Below the pieces are notes generated by a model that saw only the letters and a list, made by a program, of their open reading frames with translations, was not told where the DNA came from and did no database searches. The position numbers were made by a program, and so were the translations under genes. A stretch of DNA of 64,000 bases from Candidatus Omnitrophota bacterium. GTDB lineage: Bacteria; Omnitrophota; Gorgyraeia; Zapsychrales; Aceulaceae. The stretch's first letter is position 1; every line of letters begins with the position of its first letter. The stretch is from the NCBI GenBank assembly GCA_029564765.1, contig JAKQPK010000013.1:219164-283163 (forward strand), given 5' to 3'. This document shows positions 77 to 29,283 of this stretch, piece by piece.

Positions 77-2434
77 ATGAAACTCAAACCTTTCCATCAT
101 TTTCTTGCCGTTGCGGCCTTTTTTATTCTCTTTCTCGTTGTTTTCTTTCATGATGTCGTGTTCAAGGGAAAAACCTTTAAGGCGACAACGATGTTCGCGC
201 AAGCTCTGCCCAGTGGCCCTTATGGGCAATCCGGCAACTATGGCACCTCTTGTCATACGTTCTTGCGTGAATCAGCAGCTATTGAAGAACCATTCTATCA
301 ATTTTTAAGAACAAGCTTTCAGCAAGGTGTTTTTCCGCTCTGGAATCCCTATCAATGCTGTGGCGTTCCTGTTACGGCTATGATGGAAGCCGGGATCTTT
401 TTTCCGCTCACTGCAATCGTCTATCTTTTGCCTAATATCATCAGCATGGATGTCTTGATCCTCGCGCGTTTGCTCCTTGCCGCTTTATTGATGTATTGGC
501 TCATGAGCGTTTGGGGTTTTGGCCTGCTGGCAAGGATCGCGGCGGCGCTCATATTTGCCTGCAGCGGCCCGATGGTGACATTGCACATATGGGCGATCAA
601 TGTTGACCTTCTTCTTCCGTTATTATTCTTGAGCGCGTATCAATTTTTTTATCGAGGATCTCTCTGGGACCGTCTTCTTTTAAGCATAGCCGTTGCTTTA
701 AGCATCTTTGGCGGCCACATCGAGCACATCTTCCTTGTTCATTTCACGCTATTGTGTTATGGCATTTTTCTTTTGTGGCAGAGCAACAAAGGATCCCCGA
801 GATCTACCTTTTCTTTGACGGCACGCTTTGTCTCTTTTTACCTCTTGGGTGTCGGCATATCCGCTGTTGCTTTATTTCCTTTTATTCCTGATTTTTTTCA
901 CTCGTGGACATCACATACGGCAGACTGTGGATCTGCTGTCGCGCCTTTATCAGAAGTCCTGGGAAAACTCATTACGGTTATTGTTCCAAAATTCTATAGT
1001 GATGTTCTGATCCCCTTAAAGGGGGAGGTGTACAATTGGTGTGGAGGATATTTAGGTGTCATGACCATTGCGCTTGCTGCAGCCGGGCTATGGTGTAGGT
1101 CGCACAGGCCGTTCATTTTATTTTCTAGCATCGCGTCTTTTATTGTCTATGGCATGGTATCAGGATCAGGCTATACGCAGTGGATCGGGCATTTGCCAGT
1201 CTTTAATATTATGCTTTTACGATTGCATTCGGTCTGGATCCTCACGTTCTTCATCTCTTTCCTTGCTGGAGCTGGGATCGAGAGCATTGCGCTCCAATCT
1301 CAGGCTATGCTCAGAAAATTCTCTTGTATCGCGTTTAGCCTTGGCCTTTTGATCGGATGCTATCTTTTGGTTTTCCGACGTGAACCTTTTTTCGCGCAAG
1401 CGATAAAGGCATCAGGCATCGCGTTCGGTTTTCTTGCCGCGTCCATTCTTTGGTATGTTTTCGCAATGACGGCCACAAGGCGGAAACCATATGCTATCGT
1501 GGTCGGACTTGTCGTCCTTCTTGCCGGGGAGTTGTTTATCCATAATCCTGATTCTCGCCCCCGTCGTTTTGATTCATTCCCGAGAGTGCCTTATGTTGAA
1601 TTTTTAAAAAAGAATACACAGGATCCCAGGTTTCGCGCTCAAGGTTTCTTTCTGGCCTTTTATCGAAATACGGCCATGGCATACGGCGTAGAGAGTTTTT
1701 CAGGAAGCCAGGCACTATATCCTCGTCGATATGTAGAATTCGTTCAACAACTTATCCATCCGGGGCTTTTCTCAACAATATGCCCAAAGCCAATTTCCAC
1801 GGAAGGGTTTGACCAGGCGCTGATCACGCGCAGTGATATATTGGCCTTGGCGAACGTGAATTATTTTGTTCTACCGCAGCAGAGCAATGTTGGGCCTCAG
1901 CCGGTCTATGACGCGGAAACGCAGATCCTTCCCATATCTGCCGCGATATCTTTACCTTCTGCTTTGCCTCGAGCGTATTTAGCCTATCAATGGACATCTG
2001 TTCCTAAGGGCGCAGGACAAGAAGCCTTAGAGAAGATAAAGGCAGCACGATTGCGCGCGGCGGCTAATGTCATTATTGAAAATATCTTGGACAAGAAACT
2101 TCCTTTTACGCCGTCAGAGCGGCAGGGTATCGTGGCGGTTGAAGAAAAGAAGCGATGGGCAAACGGAGTGATCGTCAAGGCGCGCGCGGACGCGCCTTGT
2201 GTATTAGTCCTGACGGATGCTTATTATCCTGGGTGGAAGGCTTGGGTCAATGGGAAGCCTGCGACGATCTATCCGGCGAACCATTTATTCCGCGCGGTTT
2301 TTTTGCCGCCGGGTGACCATAGGGTTGTCTTTCGCTTTGTTCCTTTTTGGTTCTATGTGGGATTAGGAGTAACGGTCTTTAGCTGCGCGCTTTGGGTGGG
2401 GATCTTGTTTCGACGAAAGAAGCAAAGATCATGA
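77..2434 (+). CDS. Polytopic GT-C-like membrane protein (YfhO/PMT-like): about 12 TM helices followed by a roughly 280-aa extracytoplasmic C-terminal domain
   Basis: Long hydrophobic N-terminal two thirds, soluble C-terminal domain, overall size around 790 aa. The ORF track starts at TTG 47; the first ATG is at 77 (MKLKPF...) and there is no clear SD for either. Family assignment is by architecture only. Confidence 0.45.
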   Translation: MKLKPFHHFLAVAAFFILFLVVFFHDVVFKGKTFKATTMFAQALPSGPYGQSGNYGTSCHTFLRESAAIEEPFYQFLRTSFQQGVFPLWNPYQCCGVPVTAMMEAGIFFPLTAIVYLLPNIISMDVLILARLLLAALLMYWLMSVWGFGLLARIAAALIFACSGPMVTLHIWAINVDLLLPLLFLSAYQFFYRGSLWDRLLLSIAVALSIFGGHIEHIFLVHFTLLCYGIFLLWQSNKGSPRSTFSLTARFVSFYLLGVGISAVALFPFIPDFFHSWTSHTADCGSAVAPLSEVLGKLITVIVPKFYSDVLIPLKGEVYNWCGGYLGVMTIALAAAGLWCRSHRPFILFSSIASFIVYGMVSGSGYTQWIGHLPVFNIMLLRLHSVWILTFFISFLAGAGIESIALQSQAMLRKFSCIAFSLGLLIGCYLLVFRREPFFAQAIKASGIAFGFLAASILWYVFAMTATRRKPYAIVVGLVVLLAGELFIHNPDSRPRRFDSFPRVPYVEFLKKNTQDPRFRAQGFFLAFYRNTAMAYGVESFSGSQALYPRRYVEFVQQLIHPGLFSTICPKPISTEGFDQALITRSDILALANVNYFVLPQQSNVGPQPVYDAETQILPISAAISLPSALPRAYLAYQWTSVPKGAGQEALEKIKAARLRAAANVIIENILDKKLPFTPSERQGIVAVEEKKRWANGVIVKARADAPCVLVLTDAYYPGWKAWVNGKPATIYPANHLFRAVFLPPGDHRVVFRFVPFWFYVGLGVTVFSCALWVGILFRRKKQRS

Positions 2435-2787
2435 AGAAATTATTTCTTTGTTTAATGCTGTTTTTTTCTGCCACAGCTTCTTTTGCCACGACCTTGCGTC
2501 CGGCGCGCGACAACGATCCTCTGCGTTATATTGTGACCGGTATCGTAGAAAAGGTCAGCATCAACGCCCTTGAGATCTGGGATGAGAATGACAGGATCGT
2601 TAAGCGTTATGTTTATTTTGGGCGAGATGTGGAGGTTGGGCAGAGGGTCCGGGTTCATTATGACCCAGCGTCATTACGGATAGACCGCCTGAAGAAAATG
2701 ACAACGCTTGAGTATCAAAAAGATGGGCAGAATTTAGGATATATCTTTCAGCAGGAGAACAAGGTCACGCAGGGAGCAGGGCCTTGA
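2431..2787 (+). CDS. Small secreted hypothetical protein with a signal peptide
   Basis: ATGA overlap with the upstream stop. N-terminus MKKLFLCLMLFFSATASFA is a typical Sec signal. No recognisable domain. Confidence 0.45.
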   Translation: MKKLFLCLMLFFSATASFATTLRPARDNDPLRYIVTGIVEKVSINALEIWDENDRIVKRYVYFGRDVEVGQRVRVHYDPASLRIDRLKKMTTLEYQKDGQNLGYIFQQENKVTQGAGP

Positions 2788-3148
2788 TCTTTTCCAAAAG
2801 AAGTTCAAGTTCGTAGGGTTTACGGATAAAATCATTGGCTCCCAAGGCCCGCGCCTTTTCTTCCATCGCTGGATTAACGTTGGCGCTAGAGATAATGAGC
2901 GGCAGGCAGATCGTTCTTGGGATACGTTTTAGATTTTCAATGACGAACAACCCTCCACCGCTGGGTAACCCCAGGTCAAGGATGACCAAAGAGACATCTT
3001 CCCGTGCCGCGTATTGGATCGCGAATGTGGCATCATAAGCAACAAGCACTTGATAGCCGTTACCGACCAAGAATGTCATCAAGGCCATGACGAATTTTTG
3101 ATCATCATCAACGATCAGGATTTTTTTAGGTTTTGCGTTCTCTGTCAT
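2765..3148 (-). CDS. Single-domain response regulator (CheY-like receiver)
   Basis: KKILIVDDD ... LVILDLGLP ... receiver motifs. Its start overlaps the stop of the upstream kinase gene by 4 nt (ATGA). Confidence 0.8.
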   Translation of the reverse strand: MTENAKPKKILIVDDDQKFVMALMTFLVGNGYQVLVAYDATFAIQYAAREDVSLVILDLGLPSGGGLFVIENLKRIPRTICLPLIISSANVNPAMEEKARALGANDFIRKPYELELLLEKIKALLPA

Positions 3149-4116
3149 GAGCGATCACCTGTCAATGTAAGCAAAACAGTAAAACAATTCGTTTCTTTGG
3201 GATCGCTGGTAGCCCAGATCTTTCCTCCGTGAAGCTCGATGATATCTTTAGCAATAGATAAGCCTAACCCCTGGCCTTCGATCAGCGCGTTGAGGCGTTC
3301 GAATTTATCAAAGATCTTTTCCAGTTTGTTCGCGGGGATCGGGTCGCCTGTGTTGAAGAAATCCGCGCGCGCAAGCCCATCAACAGCATACGCCTTAACA
3401 CGGACTTTTCCATTGCAGGGTGTATGCTTGAGTGAATTGCTTAAAAGGTTGTTCATTGCTCGGGTGATCTTTTCTCGATCAGCCTGGATGAATAAAGGAT
3501 CCTTGCCAAGATCTGTGCTTAGTGAAATATTTTTTTCGTGAGTCATTGTCTGAAGCTCTCGGCATTGCGCCTGGAGGATCTCTCGCAGATCAAAGCGGGT
3601 GATCGTCATTTCTGTTTGCCGCGCTTCGAACATGTAGGCATTGATCAGGTCTGTTGTGATCGTGTTCATCCGGTCAGCAACATCTTTGCATACTTCTATC
3701 GCGTCCTTTTGTTGGGCCGTCAGACTGCCGAGAAATCCGGCCAGCAGGTTGGAGATATTCGCTTTGATCGTAGCCACAGGGCTTTTAAGGTCATGCGCCA
3801 GCGACATCGCGAAGGTTGATTTGATCTCGTCGGCATGCTTTGCCCGTGTCGCGTAGAGCAATGTTTTCTTGATAATGTTCTTGATAACACTGTAGGCGAC
3901 GATATATCCTAGGACAAGAATAGCGCCCGCGGAAACAAGAATAGGGCCTGCGTCCAGAAAAGATCTGTTGCCGGTCAGAATTTTATCGACCAAGACATAA
4001 ATAAGCGCTAGAAGGGGAATGACGCTCATCAAAAGAAAAGCAAGGTTCAGCCGTCGATAGGGATTTTCGTTTAATTCTTGGAATAAAAGCTTTTGTTCGT
4101 TACCTGTATTGCTCAT
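3145..4116 (-). CDS. Sensor histidine kinase (2 TM, HisKA + HATPase_c)
   Basis: H-box AHDLKSPV, N-box and G-box (GQGLGLSIAKDIIELHGG), two N-terminal TM segments. Translationally coupled to the receiver gene. Confidence 0.8.
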   Translation of the reverse strand: MSNTGNEQKLLFQELNENPYRRLNLAFLLMSVIPLLALIYVLVDKILTGNRSFLDAGPILVSAGAILVLGYIVAYSVIKNIIKKTLLYATRAKHADEIKSTFAMSLAHDLKSPVATIKANISNLLAGFLGSLTAQQKDAIEVCKDVADRMNTITTDLINAYMFEARQTEMTITRFDLREILQAQCRELQTMTHEKNISLSTDLGKDPLFIQADREKITRAMNNLLSNSLKHTPCNGKVRVKAYAVDGLARADFFNTGDPIPANKLEKIFDKFERLNALIEGQGLGLSIAKDIIELHGGKIWATSDPKETNCFTVLLTLTGDRS

Positions 4117-10335: not shown

Positions 10336-12062
10336 TCAAAAAAGTTTATCTGATCGGGAATCCCAATGTTGGCAAGAGCGCGGTTTTTTCAAGGCTGACC
10401 GGTGTTCATGTCATGTCTTCGAATTATCCGGGGACAACCGTTGAGATCAGCCGCGGCTTGCTGACCGTAGGCGAGCAGCGAGTGGATGTTGTTGATCTTC
10501 CCGGGACATATTCCCTGGAGCCGACATCGCGTGCGGAAGAAGTCGCGGTGTCTTTGTTGAATGAACATCCCCAGAATGAGATCGCGGTCGTGAATATTCT
10601 AGACGCGACCAATCTTGAGCGTAATCTGTTCTTGACGCTTCAGCTTCTGGAAAAGGGATTTTCCGTGATCGTTTGCCTGAACATGTGCGATGACGCGGTA
10701 CACCGAGGAGTACATATTGACACGCGCAAATTAGAAGATATTCTACAGGTTCCGGTTGTCGCGACGTGCGCGATCGCTGGTACCGGCATTAAAGATCTGG
10801 TGGCAAGGATCGTCGAGACCGCAGCCCGTCCACGCGTCTCCTTGAATTTTCAGGATCGATGGGCGGAGATCGGCAGGATCGTCGAGAACGTTCAGCGCTT
10901 AGAGCATCGGCATCATACTCTTCGCGAAATGCTTGAAGATGCGTCAGTCAAGCCTTTGACCGGCCTTGTGATGGCGGGGGCTGTTATCTATGCGTCATTT
11001 AAGGTCGTGCGTTTTATCGGTGAAGGCATCATTACTTACATCACGGACCCATTTTTTATCAATATCTATCAACCTTTGCTGGAAAAAATGACAAGCGGCT
11101 GGCAGCCGGGGAGTTTTCTTTTTCATCTTCTCATCGGTGATTTGATCGATGGGGGGATCGATTTTAAACAATCTTTGGGTGTTCTGACAACCGCGCCGTA
11201 TATCGAGTTTGGCATGGTCTTGCCCTATGTCATCGCGTTCTATCTGATCTTAAGTCTTTTGGAGGATGTTGGCTATTTGCCGCGGTTGGCCATATTGCTG
11301 GATAATCTTTTGCACCGATTAGGGCTGCATGGATACGCGGTTATTCCGGTATTGCTGGGTTTTGGCTGTAATGTGCCAGGCATTCTATCGACGCGCGTCC
11401 TTGAATCAAAAAGAGAAAGGTTCATCGCGGCGACTTTGATCTCGATCGGAGTTCCTTGTGTTCCTTTGCAGGCCATGATCTTTGGACTTTTAGGTGTTTT
11501 TGGCGGATTCTACGTTGCTGGCGTTTACCTTGTCCTTTTTTCTTTGATCATTATCTTGGGGCTCATCCTGAATCGCTTGATGCCGGGATATAGCCCTGAA
11601 TTCTTGCTGGAGATCCCGCCATACCGATTTCCGCCGCTATGGATGCTCGCGCAAAAATTATACTTTCGCATCAAAGGCTTTATCGTTGAGGCGGTTCCTG
11701 TCGTGCTGATCGGCGTCTTTATTATTAACATCCTTTTGTTCGTCCAGGCATTTGATCTTGCGGCAGGGATCTTCGCGCCGATCGTTCATGGACTTTTTGG
11801 CCTGCCTCAAGAATCCATCATCGCTCTTGTGATTGGGTTTTTCCGCAAAGACGTTGCTGTAGGGTTGTTAATGCCGCTAGATCTTTCCGCCAAGCAGCTT
11901 TTTATTGCGTCGACACTTTTAGCGATATCTTTTCCATGCGTGGCAACGTTTATCGTTCTGTGGAAAGAGCTTGGAGTCAAAGATGTCATCAAAGCAACGC
12001 TTTTAATGATCGGCGTCAGCCTGATCGTCGGAACGTTGTTAAATTTTGTTATCCTTTCCTAA
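10332..12062 (+). CDS. feoB: Ferrous iron transporter FeoB (G-domain + membrane permease, short form)
   Basis: G1 GNPNVGKS, G3 DLPG, NxxD, and a polytopic C-terminal Gate-like membrane domain. Confidence 0.9.
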   Translation: MIKKVYLIGNPNVGKSAVFSRLTGVHVMSSNYPGTTVEISRGLLTVGEQRVDVVDLPGTYSLEPTSRAEEVAVSLLNEHPQNEIAVVNILDATNLERNLFLTLQLLEKGFSVIVCLNMCDDAVHRGVHIDTRKLEDILQVPVVATCAIAGTGIKDLVARIVETAARPRVSLNFQDRWAEIGRIVENVQRLEHRHHTLREMLEDASVKPLTGLVMAGAVIYASFKVVRFIGEGIITYITDPFFINIYQPLLEKMTSGWQPGSFLFHLLIGDLIDGGIDFKQSLGVLTTAPYIEFGMVLPYVIAFYLILSLLEDVGYLPRLAILLDNLLHRLGLHGYAVIPVLLGFGCNVPGILSTRVLESKRERFIAATLISIGVPCVPLQAMIFGLLGVFGGFYVAGVYLVLFSLIIILGLILNRLMPGYSPEFLLEIPPYRFPPLWMLAQKLYFRIKGFIVEAVPVVLIGVFIINILLFVQAFDLAAGIFAPIVHGLFGLPQESIIALVIGFFRKDVAVGLLMPLDLSAKQLFIASTLLAISFPCVATFIVLWKELGVKDVIKATLLMIGVSLIVGTLLNFVILS

Positions 12063-13198
12063 TGATAACCCGCTTGATCTGCGCAGAGTGCCCTAACGGA
12101 TGCAATCTTTCTTTAGAGTGGAAAGATGCTGTTTCCGTTGTCGTTAGCGATAATCAATGCAGCCGCGGCATTGGATACGCGGCGCGCATACTTTGCAGAG
12201 AGAAAGATGTTCACATCGAAGCCAAAGAAAAGACAGCCCATTTTAGCCAAGAAGCGATCGCTGAGATCCTGAAAAGCTGGAACATCCCTCTTTCTCGGGT
12301 GCGTTACGATATCCCGATCCAAGGAAGCCCTGAGCGCAGTCTTTTTCGGGTCGTGATCGAGAATGCCGATAAAGAACTTTTTGTCCTTGAGCAGATCGCT
12401 ATTAAAAATCTTGATGCTAGGCGTCGGATCGCTAAGACCCTTGATCTTTTAAGCCAGAAAAAGATCTCCCAGCTTAATCCTTATTTGAAGAATATTTCTC
12501 AGGAGCATTTAACGCAGCACAGGGCGACATTCTGGCAGGTGGCTCCTTTTGTTCAGGGGGTCGCGCTTGAAAGAGAAAAGTATATGCTCGACAGCTGGCG
12601 GGGAAAAGCGCTGGCTGAGTTCTTGATCGATTTGCGACAGGCGGGTGAGATCCCATTTTTTAACACGAAGAAAGTTTTTTCTCTTAAAAGTTATATCCAT
12701 AAATTGGTCCGCAATATCGCAACATATAAAGGTGATGTTCTTTCTGATGTCAAGGATATCGTTGATCTTCTGGAAAAAGATTTTCTGACCCAGGATGAAA
12801 GACTGCCAATCGTTTTTTGTCACGGCGATTATCATCCAATGAACATGATTTGGGGCAATGACCGAATCGCGTGTGTCATTGATTGGGAATTCTCCGGATA
12901 TAAGAACGAAATTTATGATATGGCAAACCTGATCGGGTGTGTGGGTGTTGAAAACCCTCAAGGCTTGTCCGCAGGGCTTGTGATGTCTTTTGTCCGGAGA
13001 ATGCAAGAAGTGAGGATCATTTCTGCGGCTGGCTGGCATTATCTAGTTGATTGCGTTCTTGCCCTTCGATTCGCATGGCTGTCTGAGTGGCTGCGTCGTA
13101 GTGATAAAGAGATGACCGATCTTGAGCTTGATTATATGCATCTGTTGATAGAGAATAGAGAAGACCTAAAAAAGTATTGGGATGTTAAAGGAGCTTGA
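12062..13198 (+). CDS. APH/choline-kinase-like phosphotransferase with an N-terminal Cys-rich motif
   Basis: Kinase-fold motifs [14 protein letters not shown] and IDWEFSG. N-terminal CAECPNGC. Start ATG overlaps the feoB stop (TAATG). The ORF-track start inside feoB at 11936 is rejected. Confidence 0.6.
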
Positions 13199-24932: not shown

Positions 24933-24936
24933 GGGC

Positions 24937-24987
24937 AGTCGTTGGTCGATAGCATTTAGTATTTAGCTAAATACTAACGACTAAATA
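24937..24987. promoter_or_regulatory. Composite palindrome: 22-bp perfect inverted repeat TTAGTATTTAGCTAAATACTAA flanked by AGTCGT/ACGACT, with the half-site CTAAATAC repeated again 11 bp downstream
   Basis: Read directly: 24956-24977 is a perfect palindrome. GTATTTAG / CTAAATAC / CTAAATAC lie at 24959, 24969 and 24980. It sits 5 bp after the asnB-like stop and has no T-tract. Confidence 0.45.
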
Positions 24988-25017
24988 CCAAGGACAATCT
25001 TTTAACTGGGGGTGTTT

Positions 25018-25176
25018 ATGAAAGTACTCGGGAAATCAGTTAAAGTGTTTAAGATCAAGAATCGTCGCGGATATGCAGCACTCTGCAATGATCATTTGAC
25101 CGAAGGCTCTACGTCAGCCCAAGCCTGCGAGCGTATGGAAAAGGCGCTCAAGAGGACGGGGAAGAAGAGGAAGTAA
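25018..25176 (+). CDS. Small basic 52-aa protein (not in the ORF track)
   Basis: GGGGGTG SD-like 4 nt before ATG. MKVLGKSVKVFKIKNRRGYAALCNDHLTEGSTSAQACERMEKALKRTGKKRK. Weak resemblance to a half YegP/DUF1508-type fold. Lies in the AT-rich islet. Confidence 0.3.
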   Translation: MKVLGKSVKVFKIKNRRGYAALCNDHLTEGSTSAQACERMEKALKRTGKKRK

Positions 25177-25187
25177 AAAAGTTAGTT

Positions 25188-25241
25188 GAGTTTATAGAGT
25201 TTATAGAGCTTGTTGAGTCGGTTGAGTTTGTAGAGTTAACC
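25188..25241. repeat. Tandem 9-bp repeat array, 6 units, consensus GAGTTTRTA
   Basis: gagtttata gagtttata gagcttgtt gagtcggtt gagtttgta gagttaacc. Confidence 0.8.
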
Positions 25242-25330
25242 CAATGAACGCAAAGAACACAAGAAACCCAATCAACCCAATGAACACAATGAGCGCAACA
25301 AACCCGATGAACCCAACTAGCCCAAAAATA
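25241..25330. repeat. Tandem 9-bp repeat array, 10 units, consensus CCAATGAAC
   Basis: ccaatgaac gcaaagaac acaagaaac ccaatcaac ccaatgaac acaatgagc gcaacaaac ccgatgaac ccaactagc ccaaaaata. Directly abuts the first array. Confidence 0.8.
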
Positions 25331-25376
25331 GGTAGAAACGTTTTGGTTTTTCATTGGTTTTTCAGGAGGAAACGAT

Positions 25377-25565
25377 ATGGACAAGATATTTGATGCGTGC
25401 GTGGCTATATTGCTGGATATGGCAGCCTTCACCGGAACAACATACAAGACGATCAATGTGATTATTTTTTGTATTATTTGGCCGATCGTGACTTTGGCGC
25501 TTGTGCTTTTGACTTTGCGTCAACGTGATGTCATTAGAGATCTTAAAAAGCGCATTAATCGATAA
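25377..25565 (+). CDS. 62-aa two-TM small membrane protein
   Basis: Strong SD AGGAGGAAACGAT before ATG. Two hydrophobic helices and a basic C-terminus. AGAAACGTTTT, a degenerate copy of the AGAA-N3-TTCT element, lies 35 bp upstream. Confidence 0.5.
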   Translation: MDKIFDACVAILLDMAAFTGTTYKTINVIIFCIIWPIVTLALVLLTLRQRDVIRDLKKRINR

Positions 25566-25617
25566 GCAGAAACGCTTTGAGGGGTTTGATAGCGTGGAAT
25601 GCAAATTGAAGAGAGTT

Positions 25618-25659
25618 CAGAACGCTTCTAAATAAGTCGTTGGGATGGGGAGGGCGGGG
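25618..25659 (+). promoter_or_regulatory. Conserved upstream element, copy 1 (AGAACGCTTCT inverted repeat + TAAATAAG + G-tract block GGGATGGGGAGGGCGGGG)
   Basis: Aligns with copies at 26460 and 26782. About 73 bp upstream of ATG 25733. Confidence 0.6.
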
Positions 25660-25732
25660 TAGAAATATTTTGAGGTCTTTTGAAGTTTTGGGGTTTTCAG
25701 AATTTTATCATAAGTGGAAAGCGAGGCGGCAG

Positions 25733-26428
25733 ATGGAAGCAGCGAAGAATAAAATGAAGGACCGTCTTTCAATGGTCGTTGGCACGATCGCGAGGACTTC
25801 TTTTTTAATTTATTGTATTGTTGTTGGTGGCGGTTACTGGTTTTTGCGTTTTGGGTTATTCGGAAATCCACAACTGACAGTTGCGTGGTGGAAGATTTTG
25901 TTTGTCCTATGTGGCGGTTTTGTTTTATTGGGGCTGATGATCTCTGCCTTAAGAGATGATATTCTATTATTTTTTAGAAGGTCAGAAAATAATAAACATA
26001 TTGACCCAGCGAGATGGATAATCTTTTTGGGTATTTTTATTTTGTCATATTTCTTGTTGATCTGGGGGCAAGGGGTAAGCCAGGCTGCATATTTAAACAA
26101 TATTTTTAGAAATTTTATATATAGCCCGGTCCCTCGGCAAGTGAAGATCATCAAAGGGTCTTATCATGCGTGGCTTGGCGAGGAAGTTTCCGTGGAGTTT
26201 GGCTGCGATCTTCAAACTTTCAACAGGATCCTTCTTGATAAAGGCTATACGCCATTGACTTCGGCGCAAAAAGATAAGTTTCGTGGCCACTTTTTCCGTT
26301 GGGATGAGGAAGGGTTTTCTTTTTATTGTCGTGATGCCGTGATGAGCGAAAGAAATCCTTATCCATGTTATTTGTTTTGGAACGCCAAGGAGAATCGAGC
26401 GTATTTTTTTTATACAGTGCCGGATTAA
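25733..26428 (+). CDS. Hypothetical membrane protein: 3-4 N-terminal TM helices plus a roughly 110-aa C-terminal soluble domain
   Basis: GAGG SD 6 nt before ATG 25733. The ORF-track start at 25640 would translate the G-rich element and is rejected. AT-rich codon usage. Confidence 0.5.
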   Translation: MEAAKNKMKDRLSMVVGTIARTSFLIYCIVVGGGYWFLRFGLFGNPQLTVAWWKILFVLCGGFVLLGLMISALRDDILLFFRRSENNKHIDPARWIIFLGIFILSYFLLIWGQGVSQAAYLNNIFRNFIYSPVPRQVKIIKGSYHAWLGEEVSVEFGCDLQTFNRILLDKGYTPLTSAQKDKFRGHFFRWDEEGFSFYCRDAVMSERNPYPCYLFWNAKENRAYFFYTVPD

Positions 26429-26459
26429 AAGAATGAAACGCCTCAGGAATGAAACGCCC

Positions 26460-26502
26460 CAGAACGTTTTTAGATAAGTCTTTTGGGTGGGGATGGTTTT
26501 GG
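26460..26502 (+). promoter_or_regulatory. Conserved upstream element, copy 2 (CAGAACGTTTTTAGATAAGTCTTTTGGGTGGGGATGG)
   Basis: Preceded by the direct duplication CAGGAATGAAACGCC x2. About 43 bp upstream of ATG 26545. Confidence 0.6.
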
Positions 26503-26544
26503 CAGGCAGGATCGTTAGGGCATAAAAATAAATAAGGAGAGAAA

Positions 26545-26796
26545 ATGAATTCAATTTTAGCGCCTGTTCTAATCTTTGCTGTTGCTGTGTTGATCTGTGG
26601 GATCATCGCGCATTTTTTGACAAACCTTGTCAGGAAGAAGACATCGAATCAGGTTGTCGTGAATATTGCTTTTGCTGTCTTTATTTTCTTACTTTTGTTC
26701 TTGTTTTTTATGTGGGGCTCATCTCAGCCTTTGCGTCATTCAGATTTTCAAAGGTCAAGCTCCCAAAACCCCCAAAAACCCTCAGAACGTTTCTAG
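26545..26796 (+). CDS. 83-aa two-TM small membrane protein
   Basis: SD AAGGAGAG before ATG. Two TM helices. Its stop TAG lies inside copy 3 of the conserved element. Confidence 0.5.
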   Translation: MNSILAPVLIFAVAVLICGIIAHFLTNLVRKKTSNQVVVNIAFAVFIFLLLFLFFMWGSSQPLRHSDFQRSSSQNPQKPSERF

Positions 26797-26826
26797 ATAA
26801 GCTGTGGGGGTTGGGAAGAGTGGGTG
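26782..26826 (+). promoter_or_regulatory. Conserved upstream element, copy 3 (CAGAACGTTTCTAGATAAGCTGTGGGGGTTGGGAAGAGTGGGTG)
   Basis: About 62 bp upstream of GTG 26888. Preceded by CCAAAACCCCCAAAAACCC. Confidence 0.6.
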
Positions 26827-26887
26827 TAAGCGAGGGAAGATTGCTTTGGTCAATAGAGGCCTGCAGAAACAATGAAAGGAGATCATC

Positions 26888-27304
26888 GTGGCGGTAAAGA
26901 ATATCTACATTACGGATAACGATATGAAGCGATTGCGAGAATTGATCATGGTGGCAAGGCAATTCAAGAAAGAGGAAGAAAAATATTTGCAGGAACTGGA
27001 AAATGAGCTAAATCGTGCTCAAGTCGTCAGCGCTCAAAATATTCCACCTGATGTCATCACCATGAATTCCGAAGTCCATTTACGGGACCTGGAAACTCAT
27101 GAGGAGACAGCCTATCGATTAGTTTTTCCTGACCAGGCGGACGCGGGCGTAGGAAAGATCTCGATCCTGGCGCCGATCGGCACGGCCTTGCTGGGATACC
27201 GTGTCGGCGATGAGATCCAATGGCAGGTCCCTGCGGGTATAACCAAATTCAAGGTGGAGAAGATCCTTTATCAGCCTGAGTCCAGCGGGCATTATCATTT
27301 GTGA
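26888..27304 (+). CDS. GreA/GreB C-terminal-domain protein (Rnk-like regulator)
   Basis: C-terminal FKBP-like GreA/B domain: VVTMNSEVHLRDLETHEE..YRLVFP..AD...GKISILAPIGTALLGYRVGDEIQWQVP. Size matches Rnk at about 136 aa. Confidence 0.7.
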   Translation: MAVKNIYITDNDMKRLRELIMVARQFKKEEEKYLQELENELNRAQVVSAQNIPPDVITMNSEVHLRDLETHEETAYRLVFPDQADAGVGKISILAPIGTALLGYRVGDEIQWQVPAGITKFKVEKILYQPESSGHYHL

Positions 27305-27369
27305 AAAGAAGGGCAGATAAAAAGGACTGGCGTTTTTAGGATTTATTAACACAAATAACGGAGGGTAAT

Positions 27370-27840
27370 ATGGCAGAGCAAGGTCATTCATCACAAGGCA
27401 AGGGAACATTTCTTAACGTGGCTATTATTTTTGTCCTGGCGGTTTTAGCGATGTTGCTTTTTCAGCTGTTCCGCGGACCGCAACCAAGACAATGCCCGCT
27501 TTCACGCCAAGTGATACAGCAGGAAGTTTTCGCGCCTAAAGGTGCTGCGCAAGAAGAGGCTGTGCTGGTCGAGCAGGCGGCTGTTGTTCCTGCTGCAGTT
27601 GTTGCGCAAGGAAAATTTTTTATCCAGGCGGCTTCATTCCAGGATAAGGCCAAGGCCGATAGCGTGGCAGAGAAGTTAAAAGCAAAAGGCCATGAGGCGG
27701 TTGTTGAATCCAAAGACTTGGGAGAAAAAGGAATTTGGTATCGTGTGCACGCTGGGTCTTTTGAAACCAAAGAGCAGGCGCAAGAAGTCTTGAACAGCAT
27801 CAAGCAAGAGCACCCAGGGTCTTTTATTAAGGAGCGATAG
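27370..27840 (+). CDS. SPOR-domain (peptidoglycan-binding) membrane-anchored protein
   Basis: N-terminal TM and a C-terminal SPOR repeat: FFIQAASFQDKAKADSVAEKLKAKGHEAVV...WYRVHAGSFETKEQAQEV. Confidence 0.75.
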   Translation: MAEQGHSSQGKGTFLNVAIIFVLAVLAMLLFQLFRGPQPRQCPLSRQVIQQEVFAPKGAAQEEAVLVEQAAVVPAAVVAQGKFFIQAASFQDKAKADSVAEKLKAKGHEAVVESKDLGEKGIWYRVHAGSFETKEQAQEVLNSIKQEHPGSFIKER

Positions 27841-27903
27841 AGAAAAGATCAGGTTGGCCGTAGGTAGCGGACAGGTATTTTTTTTAAAGAACAGAGGACC
27901 ATC

Positions 27904-29283
27904 GTGGAGAGAAAAAAAGTTTTAGGGTTTTGGGATCTAGCGCTGTTCTCGTTCTGCGCGATCTTTGGCATCGAAGCGATCGCGGCCTCGGCGGCTATTG
28001 GGCCTTCGGCGATCTTTTGGTGGCTTGTCTGCCTTGTGGGCTTCTTTTTGCCTTTTAGCTTGATCTCCGCGGAATTGGGTTCCGCGTACCCTGATCAGGG
28101 TGGTGTCTACATCTGGATCAAAAAAGCCTTTGGGGCCCGATGGGCGGCCAGGGCGATCTGGTGTTATTGGATCGCTTTGCCGTTATGGTTGCCCGCGATC
28201 TATATCGCGATCGTTCAGATCTTAAGCCACATGTTCTTCCCCGGCCTTGCTCTTTGGCCGCAAATAGCGATCGGGGTTATTCTCATATGGTTTTCTGTTG
28301 TTGTTAATCTCTGTCCGCTTAAGTTTTCTAAATGGGTGCCTAACATCGGCTCCGTCGCGCGATTTTTGGTGATCGCTGGGATGATCGCTGCCGCGGTTTT
28401 GTATTTCTTAAAGAATGGAAATTTTGCTAATGCTATCACATGGGCGAACATTTTGCCGGATCCCAACGCGGCGATCATCTTTGTCCCGATGATCATTTAT
28501 AATCTCTTGGGTTGTGAGCTGGTGTCTGGGGCTGCTGGGGAAATGAAGGATCCTAAAAAGGATGTGCCTAGAGCGGTTATTTTCTCAGCGCTTATCATCG
28601 CATTCTTTTACGTGATCACGACCGTGACGGTTTGGGTCGTCGTTCCGGTTGCTGATATCAATGTTGCCAGCGGGATTTTCCAAATGTTCGCCATTGCTTT
28701 TGAAGGTTATGGGGCCGTGCAAAGCATTCTGGTCATGACCGGCCTTTTGATCTCTTTTGCGCTCTTTGCGGAGATCGTAGCCTGGAACTTAGGCGAGAAC
28801 CGCACGGTGGCCGAAGCGGCCTGCAATGGTGAGCTTCCAAAAGTCTTGGGAAAGGTGACCGCAAAGTCTCAAGCGCCTCTGGGGGCTTCGATCGTCTCAG
28901 GGGTGATCTCAACGGCAGTGATCATTGTTTATGGATTTATTGCCCGAAATAGCTCTGAGCTTTTTTGGCACATCGTGTCCTTTAGTTTAGTGGTTGAGTT
29001 GTTCACCTATCTGATGTTGTTCCCGGCCTTTGTTGCGCTGCGAAAGAAAGATAAAGATATCGAGAGGCCTTATCGGGTGCCGGGCCCGCAATGGCTTGTG
29101 ATATTCTTGGCGGTCATGGCGGAACTGTTCATCGTCATGGCCATGGCTATCTTGTTCCTTCAGCCTGGGCATGGTCTTATCAGGTCAGCCTTGCCGTTGA
29201 TCGTTGGGGTTTTTATTACTCTGGCAGCTGGAGAGACCTTTATCGTTACGTCTATGCGAAAGCGAAAAGAATGCCACGCGTAA
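27904..29283 (+). CDS. APC-superfamily amino acid/polyamine permease
   Basis: About 12 TM helices with an APC-like N-terminal consensus (GFWDLALFSFCAIFGIEAIAASA). Confidence 0.8.
   Translation: MERKKVLGFWDLALFSFCAIFGIEAIAASAAIGPSAIFWWLVCLVGFFLPFSLISAELGSAYPDQGGVYIWIKKAFGARWAARAIWCYWIALPLWLPAIYIAIVQILSHMFFPGLALWPQIAIGVILIWFSVVVNLCPLKFSKWVPNIGSVARFLVIAGMIAAAVLYFLKNGNFANAITWANILPDPNAAIIFVPMIIYNLLGCELVSGAAGEMKDPKKDVPRAVIFSALIIAFFYVITTVTVWVVVPVADINVASGIFQMFAIAFEGYGAVQSILVMTGLLISFALFAEIVAWNLGENRTVAEAACNGELPKVLGKVTAKSQAPLGASIVSGVISTAVIIVYGFIARNSSELFWHIVSFSLVVELFTYLMLFPAFVALRKKDKDIERPYRVPGPQWLVIFLAVMAELFIVMAMAILFLQPGHGLIRSALPLIVGVFITLAAGETFIVTSMRKRKECHA

Follow-up and report, generated by a model that had tools for sequence, protein, structure and literature searches.

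Omnitrophota are uncultured, often very small bacteria whose mobile genetics is largely uncharted. The DNA analysed here, a 64-kb window from a Candidatus Omnitrophota MAG, contains a short AT-rich stretch of small genes flanked by AsnB and SPOR genes, both calls being confirmed by Pfam. The GC content of positions 24933-26887 is 0.414, compared with 0.467 ± 0.018 in 1163 other stretches of the same size, and is the lowest of them all (z = -3.0). The ORFs for proteins of 62, 231 and 83 aa have a GC content of 0.40 and a GC3 of 0.42-0.46, against a GC3 of ~0.50-0.60 in the flanking genes. Thus, the AT-rich islet of foreign composition proposed in a preliminary description of this DNA was borne out; also within the AT-rich stretch, a gene for a 52-aa protein and a Rnk gene are host-like in composition. 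GC skew is positive throughout the locus, which places it away from the terminus.

The 52-aa basic protein is encoded at 25018..25176 (+ strand), and its homologs fall into 236 clusters across Omnitrophota. Downstream lies a segment that we term the array head (25180..25332), in which Tandem Repeats Finder detected two abutting 9-bp tandem arrays, approximately AGTTTGTAG in six units and then AACCCAATG in nine, that are roughly complementary to each other; the predicted RNA fold of the head has an energy of -34.9 kcal/mol (z = -2.85). Three genes for small membrane proteins and a Rnk/GreA-like gene follow, so that small membrane proteins account for three of the four genes of the array in the window. 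Each unit of the array consists of one co-oriented gene, usually without known function.

The first of these genes (25377..25565, + strand) encodes the 62-aa membrane protein and the third (26545..26796, + strand) the 83-aa protein, as judged by ORF and hydropathy. Both had been described as two-TM proteins, which holds for the 83-aa protein with its two TM-like segments, but the 62-aa protein has one clear segment only. Between them (25733..26428, + strand) is the gene of a near-orphan protein of 231 aa, not 232 as previously given, with three hydrophobic TM segments and, at its C-terminus, a conserved domain of ~100 aa; the protein aligns with a small family. It has only one close cluster among 5.8 billion and 19 weak relatives among 1.8 billion representatives. 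An AlphaFold2 model (pLDDT 86) found no fold match in the PDB, and the protein had no match in Pfam, NCBIfam or PADLOC. The last gene (26888..27304, + strand) was correctly recognized as Rnk/GreA-like, with Pfam Rnk_N and GreA_GreB domains and a match to NCBIfam PRK05753 (137 bits against a cutoff of 109).

Copies and architecture of the repeated element

The preliminary description had reported an element triplicated upstream of three consecutive genes, and pattern, repeat and profile searches together with shuffled controls show that it is real. The pattern CAGAACGYTTYTARATAAG, with up to three mismatches permitted, has exactly three matches in the 64 kb, at 25618, 26460 and 26783, all on the + strand; shuffled controls gave a mean of 0.18 matches, and none of 100 shuffles contained three. 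A repeat search recovered the same three 44-nt copies, G-tracts included, at 70-75% identity, and nhmmer (--max) with a profile built from eight copies found no further ones in the window. The reported spacing of 43-73 bp is likewise correct, as 73, 43 and 63 nt separate the ends of the 44-nt copies from the gene starts at 25733, 26545 and 26888.

The full element is longer than these 44 nt, at ~55-65 bp, and consists of an optional C-rich run, a left core CAGAACGTTTCTA with GATAAG after it, ~25 nt of G-rich spacer that is conserved in sequence, and a right core TAGAAACGTTTTG(AGG). The latter repeats the 13-nt left core in inverted orientation, ~43 bp downstream, and the distance from core to core is constant at 42-44 nt. 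Copy 1 (25618..25672, + strand; 46.5 bits against the profile) has its left core at 25618-25636 and, beyond the spacer, the right core TAGAAATATTTTG at 25660-25672, the two cores starting 42 nt apart. Copy 2 (26453..26514, + strand; 52.1 bits) has a degenerate right core, and Tandem Repeats Finder detected a 16-nt tandem duplication just before it (26431-26462). In copy 3 (26762..26833, + strand; 47.1 bits), C-rich 9-nt repeats found by the same program at 26762-26781 are followed by the left core at 26783-26801 and then by G-tracts.

Two further sites, located by motif search, carry the right core only, and both align, on the minus strand, with the 5′ arm of the profile. One is the core TAGAAACGTTTTG of the array head (25333..25345, + strand). 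Here, a degenerate fourth copy had been noted (AGAAACGTTTT at 25334); the site is real, but represents the right-hand core alone, in inverted orientation, rather than a decayed copy. The other, missed in the preliminary description, is a 16-nt short junction, CAGAAACGCTTTGAGG (25567..25582, + strand), directly 3′ of the stop codon of the 62-aa gene.

With respect to the genes on either side, the element ends the upstream ORFs through stop codons placed at fixed offsets in two reading frames, and it forms the first part of the next gene's short leader. The stretch TAGATAAG provides the stop codons of three upstream ORFs, and the 83-aa ORF stops at a TAG within the left core of copy 3. A gene starts ~20-75 nt past every copy, and GAGG-type Shine-Dalgarno-like repeats come after the right core.

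Left and right cores can form 8-10 Watson-Crick pairs of 13, but the resulting hairpin is unstable in the real copies: forcing it yields +2.8 to -2.8 kcal/mol, compared with -2.9 to -9.4 kcal/mol for the unconstrained folds. The folding z-scores of the real copies range from -1.7 to +1.6, and no compensatory pairs were found among the element copies. Only an idealised consensus folds (-13.4 kcal/mol), with inverted arms of ~13-22 nt, and a weak hairpin between C-rich and G-rich segments is predicted around the left core in several copies. Rfam 15 gave no match at the gathering threshold over the 64 kb; the sole match with an E-value up to 1 was to an irrelevant snoRNA model (E = 0.4), inside the 231-aa ORF.

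The array in related genomes

Scans of public genome, metagenome and viral collections found the element in four related contigs only, all other matches in the genome and viral collections being chance single hits. Since the genome to which the window belongs seems not to have been included in these scans, extra copies elsewhere in it are conceivable; outside the array, neither the window nor ~80 kb of related loci contains any. In all four contigs the element occupies the same locus downstream of the 52-aa gene and separates different, unrelated genes. The 52-aa gene heads the array in L018, L019, L024 and L040, and the layout of the head with its two tandem arrays is also present in L018, L019 and L040. 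In more distant Omnitrophota the element was not found after the 52-aa gene. The 52-aa gene is thus the fixed left anchor of the array and not itself a cassette.

Five arrays could be compared: the window, L040, L018, L019 and L024/L023. The window holds the 62-, 231- and 83-aa genes, L018 a 289-aa gene, L040 a 289-aa-like gene, L019 genes for 323 aa, an HNH protein and 192 aa, and L024 genes for an HNH protein, 192, 150, 62, 406 and 360 aa. Together with the near-orphan status of the 231-aa protein, these replacements mark the islet genes as accessory, in support of the earlier reading of the islet as acquired. Whether the Rnk/GreA-like gene is a cassette is uncertain: it is absent between the array and the SPOR or permease gene in L018 and L024, and the element profile finds no full element 3′ of it.

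Comparison of the arrays showed that unrelated genes are swapped between relatives exactly at the cores. Up to the head TAGAAACGTTTTG, L040 and the window share 94.4% identity, and directly after it L040 has a different first gene. Independent switches from context to cassette occur at the right core in three cases (window/L040, the HNH cassette in L019/L024 and the 62-aa cassette in window/L024), and the homology between the window and L024 stops at the short junction at 25567-25582. In all, three or four breakpoints lie in or at AGAAACG|YTTTG, too few to define the crossover at the base level. At the very points of change in gene content, the right arm is frequently hybrid or lacking. This informative basis, five arrays and three or four breakpoints, is small.

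The position of a given cassette also varies between genomes. The 62-aa gene, which opens the window's array, is preceded in L024 by at least three other genes, and it is flanked on both sides by AGAAACGYTTTG in each genome; the HNH cassette likewise changes position or context among relatives. Moreover, identity is higher in cassettes than in the chromosome around them: the 62-aa cassette is 93.5% identical between the window and L024, as against 83.3% for asnB and 84.6% for the permease gene, and a second such comparison of cassette and flank gave 99.0% against 88.2%. Element copies are 82-88% identical between species but 62-78% identical within one array, and copy 2 shares 86% identity with an L018 copy, although the latter separates other genes. 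This argues against local duplication or homogenisation; the three copies in the window, with a within-array identity of 66-69%, are not recent local duplicates. In each of the 15 contigs that contain the 231-aa gene its neighbours are the same, and ongoing shuffling is therefore not apparent within this population. At the array head of L024 an IS30 element, which has targeted the head core, is inserted; it encodes the only transposase found.

Interpretation of the element

In our leading explanation, to which we give about an even chance, the element serves as the junction repeat in a small gene-cassette array restricted to one lineage; this array lies downstream of the conserved 52-aa gene in one Candidatus Omnitrophota clade, and its cassettes move by recombination in an integron-like manner. 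According to this model, cassettes would be gained, lost and moved through recombination within the junction repeat, with the crossover probably near ACG|YTTTG of the right core, by a recombinase presumably encoded elsewhere in the genome. By analogy with integrons, the head core may play the part of attI and the full element that of attC. A Pfam scan of 30 window ORFs and the gene lists of L001 and L018 revealed only housekeeping genes and no recombinase of the tyrosine, serine or DDE type. Homologous recombination between repeats would yield the same picture. A more specific version, which we advance tentatively and hold to be doubtful, is an undescribed cassette-capture platform in this clade, characterized by inverted cores of 13 nt around ACGT, by a G-rich spacer that is conserved and by arms of 8-9-nt CCCCAAAAC/GTTTTGGGG-type units; it would use a recombinase other than an adjacent integron integrase and would be anchored beside a phylum-wide small gene, its cassettes being exchanged between species.

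The preliminary description had instead read the element as an operator and promoter for a dimeric factor or an unknown sigma factor, co-regulating an acquired regulon of membrane proteins and Rnk. The position of the element upstream of three consecutive genes fits this reading, as do a 6-bp palindrome, AACGTT, within the core and the presence of two cores ~43 bp apart, which could be paired operators; GAAACGTTTC also resembles half-site pairs of the LacI/PurR/Cra type. Since a gene starts shortly after every copy, a regulatory role is possible. However, the motif is limited to one 1.5-kb array in the 64 kb and elsewhere to the four related contigs. The genes behind it in relatives are non-orthologous (HNH, SPOR and secreted proteins), so that no coherent regulon emerges, and no regulator gene was seen to travel with it. 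A consensus scan detected neither a -35/-10 pair of sigma-70 type at the element nor an intrinsic terminator at any of the three copies, by rules that Omnitrophota may not follow, and the supposed -10 hexamer TAGATAAG is accounted for by the stop codons described above. The proposed dimer site AGAA-N3-TTCT is better seen as part of the 13-nt core, which recurs in inverted orientation ~43 nt downstream and stands alone at the head. We consider the regulon reading improbable. A milder regulatory view is that the repeats are mainly expression signals (a terminator and insulator with a promoter or leader) between small accessory genes that are swapped by homologous recombination or transformation with no dedicated recombinase. 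This would resemble the PeSL motifs of T4-like phages, which flank small, variable, mostly orphan ORFs, mark where indels and replacements start and end, and mediate such modular swapping (PMC2839356, PMC4122927). The Omnitrophota element is similarly a conserved composite intergenic motif bracketing indels and replacements between close relatives; there is no recombinase nearby, the start codons 20-75 nt after each copy and the GAGG-type repeats suit this view, the weak C-rich/G-rich hairpin lies around the left core of several copies, and 50-60 nt of conserved sequence is enough for homology-driven exchange. Yet PeSLs contain a recognisable promoter and terminator and belong to phage genomes, whereas this element lacks detectable consensus versions of either and sits on a chromosome between housekeeping genes. 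Within-array copies at 62-78% identity make a poor substrate for homologous recombination, the switch points gather at one 12-13-nt core and not along the whole repeat, and a promoter model leaves the lone inverted core at the head unexplained, which makes this account unlikely in our view.

The array could also be a true integron remnant, a CALIN, whose attC sites, folded as single strands, would be recombined by an IntI that is encoded elsewhere or has been lost. The resemblance is considerable: all ORFs lie on one strand as short, tightly packed, mostly single-ORF cassettes without known function, and behind each comes a similar repeat whose ends are inverted; content and order differ among the five arrays and some cassettes are common to several species; the head site is only one half, as is attI; and, at ~58-65 nt, the element's length is within the attC range. 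In integron cassettes, ORFs may run into the site and use its stop codons, as they do here. The left end ...CAGAAC and right end GTTTTGA recall the AAC/GTT of the attC R″/R′ boxes, and the breakpoints are compatible with crossover at G|TT. Against this stands the fact that the cores fit the consensus RYYYAAC/GTTRRRY at AAC/GTT only, the neighbouring positions being off. The R″/L″/L′/R′ arrangement with its L boxes and unpaired central spacer is absent, the G-rich spacer being conserved in sequence instead; the real copies show neither stable hairpins nor structural covariation; and the 62-aa cassette, like some others, ends in just the 16-nt short site. The array is also tiny (3-6 cassettes), and the host phylum is Omnitrophota, for which a literature search found no description of integrons or attC sites. 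An adjacent intI (PF00589 with the IntI-specific insertion) is needed for a complete integron but not for a CALIN; none was found in the 64 kb. CALINs often occur with no intI close by, and similarity among the attC sites of one array is typical of chromosomal integrons (PMC4889954). We rate a CALIN as improbable to the same degree as the regulon. Very improbable, by comparison, is a selfish MITE- or REP-like miniature inverted-repeat element inserted repeatedly in the intergenic spaces of an already variable locus. The folding of the consensus with its inverted arms of ~13-22 nt (-13.4 kcal/mol), the ends of these arms in TA/CTAG and the targeting of the head core by IS30 in L024 would agree with it, but the element is not dispersed, being absent from the other 62 kb of the window and from the flanks of the related loci, its right arm is missing or hybrid where gene content changes, and neither target-site duplications nor empty sites were seen.

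The locus, which stacks unrelated small genes behind a conserved anchor and swaps them between species at a 13-nt core, offers a concrete handle on how Omnitrophota come by accessory functions. Should the junction prove to be a novel type of recombination site, cassette-array systems would extend beyond integrons and the repeat would serve as a sequence tag with which to fish the clade's accessory genes from metagenomes; if it is a divergent attC array, integron biology would reach a new phylum. Under either reading, the small membrane proteins would be strain-specific cargo and not a conserved stress regulon.

A cassette array with its recombinase encoded elsewhere has parallels outside integrons. 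The Xer-dependent pdif modules of Acinetobacter plasmids and the IMEX arrays at dif are gene modules bounded by short inverted sites, with the recombinase encoded outside the module. The Omnitrophota array shares this arrangement, but its element bears no resemblance to the 11-6-11 XerC/XerD site and the locus lies away from the terminus. The minimal mobile elements of Neisseria are alternative cassettes at a fixed chromosomal site between conserved genes and are exchanged between strains, as here; they have no internal junction repeat and depend on homology of the flanking genes, whereas the Omnitrophota array stacks multiple cassettes separated by a dedicated repeat.

The junction element and its copies

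Pattern searching placed CAGAACGYTTYTARATAAG at three sites in the 64-kb window (25618, 26460 and 26783, all on the + strand), and tolerating three mismatches gave no further sites within the same 64 kb. Shuffled controls had a mean of 0.18 matches, with three matches in 0/100 shuffles. A repeat search extended the three copies to 44 nt including the G-tracts, at 70–75% identity. The copies end 73, 43 and 63 nt ahead of the gene starts at 25733, 26545 and 26888, respectively, and the pattern and repeat searches together with the shuffles bear out the triplication upstream of these genes noted in the preliminary description.

Eight full copies of the element were aligned. They share a conserved stretch of ~50 nt, (CCCC)AGAACGTTTCTARATAAGTCGTTGGGGYGGGGGAAGGTTTTGGTAGA, and four of them run on into AACGYTTTGAGG. 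Apart from one position, the right core of 13 nt, TAGAAACGTTTTG, matches the left core, CAGAACGTTTCTA, when reverse-complemented, and the starts of the two cores lie 42–44 nt apart. Just the eight copies reach 46–66 bits with a 65-nt nhmmer profile of the element. The profile also weakly matches the head sites (the head being the region after the 52-aa gene) and a short site after the 62-aa gene, here on the opposite strand and via its 5′ arm, indicating that the sites at 25334 and 25567–25582 are solitary right cores. Thus a site does exist at 25334, where a degenerate fourth copy had been described, but it is a lone right core rather than a degraded element; the additional one at 25567–25582 had been overlooked. 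Immediately outside the cores the arms are lengthened by tandem units of 8–16 nt, namely CCCAAAAAC (x2.2) at 26762, a 16-nt duplication at 26431, TTGGTTTTTCA (x2) at 25343 and TTTTGARG repeats in relatives of the window. Between the short right-core site and element copy 1 (25567–25617) lies an ORF-less segment of ~35 nt, which may be an empty or decayed cassette (a cassette being the gene unit between elements). On the 3′ side of the Rnk stop codon, GGACTGGCGTTTTTAGGAT (27324–27342) loosely resembles the left core and gives no match to the nhmmer profile; it may be a decayed junction that closes the array.

The left core supplies stop codons in two of the three frames, at fixed offsets of +10 and +14. 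Frame analysis showed that the ORFs for the 83-aa protein of the window, the 323-aa protein of L019 and the 192-aa protein of L024 (related contigs with the same locus) end in this core, and that the 289-aa ORF of a further such contig, L018, occupies the third frame and reads through it. This ORF crosses a C8 homopolymer and then continues for 37 codons through the element in the stop-free frame (L018 13410–13540), ending a single base ahead of the start codon of SPOR. With a +1 change in the C-run it would stop in the core as ...PKPHNVSR, and the C8 tract may be either an assembly slip or a genuine variable tract.

Beyond the window, the 19-mer pattern had 13 single matches in a genome collection that apparently lacks the window's own genome; these fall in unrelated phyla and are all attributable to chance because none has the G-tract. 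A metagenome collection, apparently also without the window's own genome, contained two real loci, L023 and L024, with three copies each, and its other five matches were chance, as were all three matches in a motif scan of viral contigs. In the window and the related loci the element occurs only in the array, and for this reason a DNA-uptake sequence or dispersed repeat was rejected.

Array content in related contigs

Relatives were retrieved via homologues of AsnB and of the 52-aa protein, with L024 in addition. AsnB identity to the window is 90% for L018 and 91% for L019, and L040 is 94.4% identical to the window at the nucleotide level over asnB, the 52-aa gene and the 9-bp repeats. In all of these relatives (L018, L019, L024 and L040) the 52-aa gene is in the same place with the same element downstream, and the genes between elements differ. 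From the 52-aa gene to the right flank, the window encodes proteins of 62, 231 and 83 aa and then Rnk. L018 carries the 289-aa gene with SPOR directly after it, L040 a homologue of that 289-aa gene, L019 genes for a 323-aa protein, a 102-aa HNH protein and a 192-aa protein, and L024 an IS30 insertion with the HNH gene and genes for proteins of 192, 150, 62, 406, 360 and 174 aa.

The array is modular, with co-oriented cassettes joined by the element; its content varies between close relatives, and cassettes shift position and pass from species to species. L040 is collinear with the window as far as TAGAAACGTTTTG, and the two diverge immediately past it. The 62-aa cassette opens the array in the window and has at least three other genes ahead of it in L024, flanked on both sides by AGAAACGYTTTG in the two arrays alike. 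The HNH cassette is preceded by a full element in L019 and by the head site in L024, and in both the homology begins within the same core. Shared cassettes exceed their chromosomal surroundings in identity. Between the window and L024 the 62-aa cassette is 93.5% identical, compared with 83.3% for asnB and 84.6% for the permease; likewise, the HNH and 192-aa pair is 99.0% identical between L019 and L024, compared with 88.2% for the flank. Element copies are 62–78% identical within an array and up to 86–88% between arrays of different species, indicating that they are neither recent local duplications nor homogenised in place.

The cassettes are also compositionally foreign. The islet between asnB and the SPOR gene (24933–26887) has a GC content of 0.414, the lowest of 1163 windows of the same size (mean 0.467, sd 0.018, z = −3.0). 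The ORFs for the 62-, 231- and 83-aa proteins (GC 0.40) account for the drop, and the 52-aa and Rnk genes are host-like in composition.

Nature of the junction site

Rfam held no family relevant to the element, single-strand folding of the copies gave no significant fold (z from −1.7 to +1.6), and RNAalifold found just a weak 11-pair hairpin with 0 compensatory changes. The idealised consensus alone folds as a left-core:right-core hairpin of −13.4 kcal/mol; when forced on the real copies, this hairpin had energies of +2.8 to −2.8 kcal/mol against minima of −2.9 to −9.4 kcal/mol. Pairing of the cores therefore costs energy in real copies, and canonical attC behaviour is unsupported. A structured RNA or single-stranded DNA was rejected, stability and covariation both being absent, and a G-quadruplex was discarded because it is not conserved, with four G3 tracts seen by eye in copy 1 only. 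A scan with a consensus that may not suit Omnitrophota detected neither a sigma-70-type promoter nor an intrinsic terminator at any of the copies. Sigma-54 promoters have the form GG-N10-GC and ECF promoters the form GAAC-N16-17-CGT. Judged by eye, the former does not fit across the copies, and the latter was rejected on a spacing of 14 nt and a CGT missing in three copies; sigma-28 and Bacteroidetes-type promoters, compared by eye with consensus sequences, did not fit across copies either. GC skew is positive throughout the window without a switch, which places the locus away from an origin or terminus and makes a dif-type site unlikely; a dif/IMEX site was accordingly rejected. Neither the 30 ORFs of the window that were scanned nor the gene tables of the related loci yielded a recombinase.

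We rate this Omnitrophota locus as a cassette array of integron-like type whose junction site is non-canonical. Cassette exchange would proceed through recombination within the junction repeat, most probably close to ACG|YTTTG in the right core, with the head core acting as attI, the full element as attC and the recombinase encoded elsewhere. The array logic is like that of an integron or CALIN (PMC4889954), but the element fails the structural (hairpin) test and its sequence boxes misfit; membership of that family is at most putative, and a divergent CALIN is possible. The main rival, also possible, is a PeSL-like arrangement, with ordinary homologous recombination shuffling a conserved regulatory junction (PMC2839356, PMC4122927). 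Such shuffling would account both for the absence of a recombinase and for the short, constant spacing between the junction and the start codon that follows, although it leaves unexplained the low identity within arrays, the clustering of breakpoints on one core and the solitary inverted core at the head. The preliminary description had proposed an acquired regulon under a shared promoter or operator. Acquisition of the islet and the sharing of a cis-element stand, but the regulon itself retains a small share of the probability, as the motif, in the sequence scanned, occurs only in the array, stands ahead of unrelated genes in relatives and contains a supposed −10 hexamer that proved instead to supply stop codons. 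The comparative signal is clean and makes gene flux in this uncultured phylum accessible to testing, although the array is small and the enzyme putative.

Islet proteins, array head and flanks

The locus of the window is present on 15 contigs (NCBI, JGI, Logan and ENA) with identical neighbours in all 15, and BLAST of the islet against plasmid and phage sequences gave no match. Pfam and NCBIfam confirmed the identities of AsnB, Rnk and SPOR and returned no family match for the small proteins of the islet. For cassette function, Pfam, NCBIfam and PADLOC gave no solid match; the 102-aa protein of L019 and L024 has a weak HNH/PtuB-like match, past which PADLOC assigned no defence system. Among 5.8 billion, the 231-aa protein has its own cluster alone, and an exhaustive HMMER search of 1.8 billion representatives recovered 19 weak relatives (best 37% identity). 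Judging from their sequences, these proteins are a genuine small family with three predicted TM helices and a conserved C-terminal domain. This alpha/beta domain of ~100 aa has V137 and T162 invariant and W147, F156, D159, F163 and Y172 nearly so. AlphaFold2 modelled the 231-aa protein confidently (pLDDT 86), and the model had no fold neighbour in the PDB; the element is absent from the locus of the protein's 37% homologue, P0122.

The 52-aa gene (25018–25176) encodes a conserved, very basic product (15 K+R), with 236 clusters across Omnitrophota. The gene occurs in distant Omnitrophota without the element, and a phylum-wide tie between gene and array was rejected. Directly 3′ of the gene (25180–25336), two abutting 9-bp tandem arrays, AGTTTGTAG (x6.4) and then AACCCAATG (x8.8), combine into a long hairpin with imperfect pairing (RNA −34.9 kcal/mol, z = −2.85). 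This layout is common to L018, L019 and L040, and distant Omnitrophota have an ordinary hairpin in its place; the paired arrays may represent a terminator in elaborated form or else an accessory to the array head.

The surroundings of the 52-aa gene are a hotspot for insertions. In L018 a PDDEXK_3 nuclease gene separates asnB from the 52-aa gene (11926–12336), and L024 has an IS30-family transposase directly 3′ of the 52-aa stop codon, adjoining the head core (2165–3163). Indels are frequent in the right flank too (26888–29283 of the window, set against L018 and L024): both contigs lack Rnk, L018 lacks the amino-acid permease and L024 lacks SPOR. Between the window and L018, SPOR is 95% identical but asnB just 83%.

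No gene is recorded in this MAG for the 52-aa product. Many contigs with the gene span just 1–2 kb, as though assemblies break close by, and in L033, another homologue locus, it adjoins the gene for ribosomal protein Thx. The interval between asnB and the 52-aa gene contains a palindrome with 29-nt arms of TTTAG/CTAAATA 7-mers (24938–24995), in place of which L019 and L024 have expanded TTTAGAA-type repeats.
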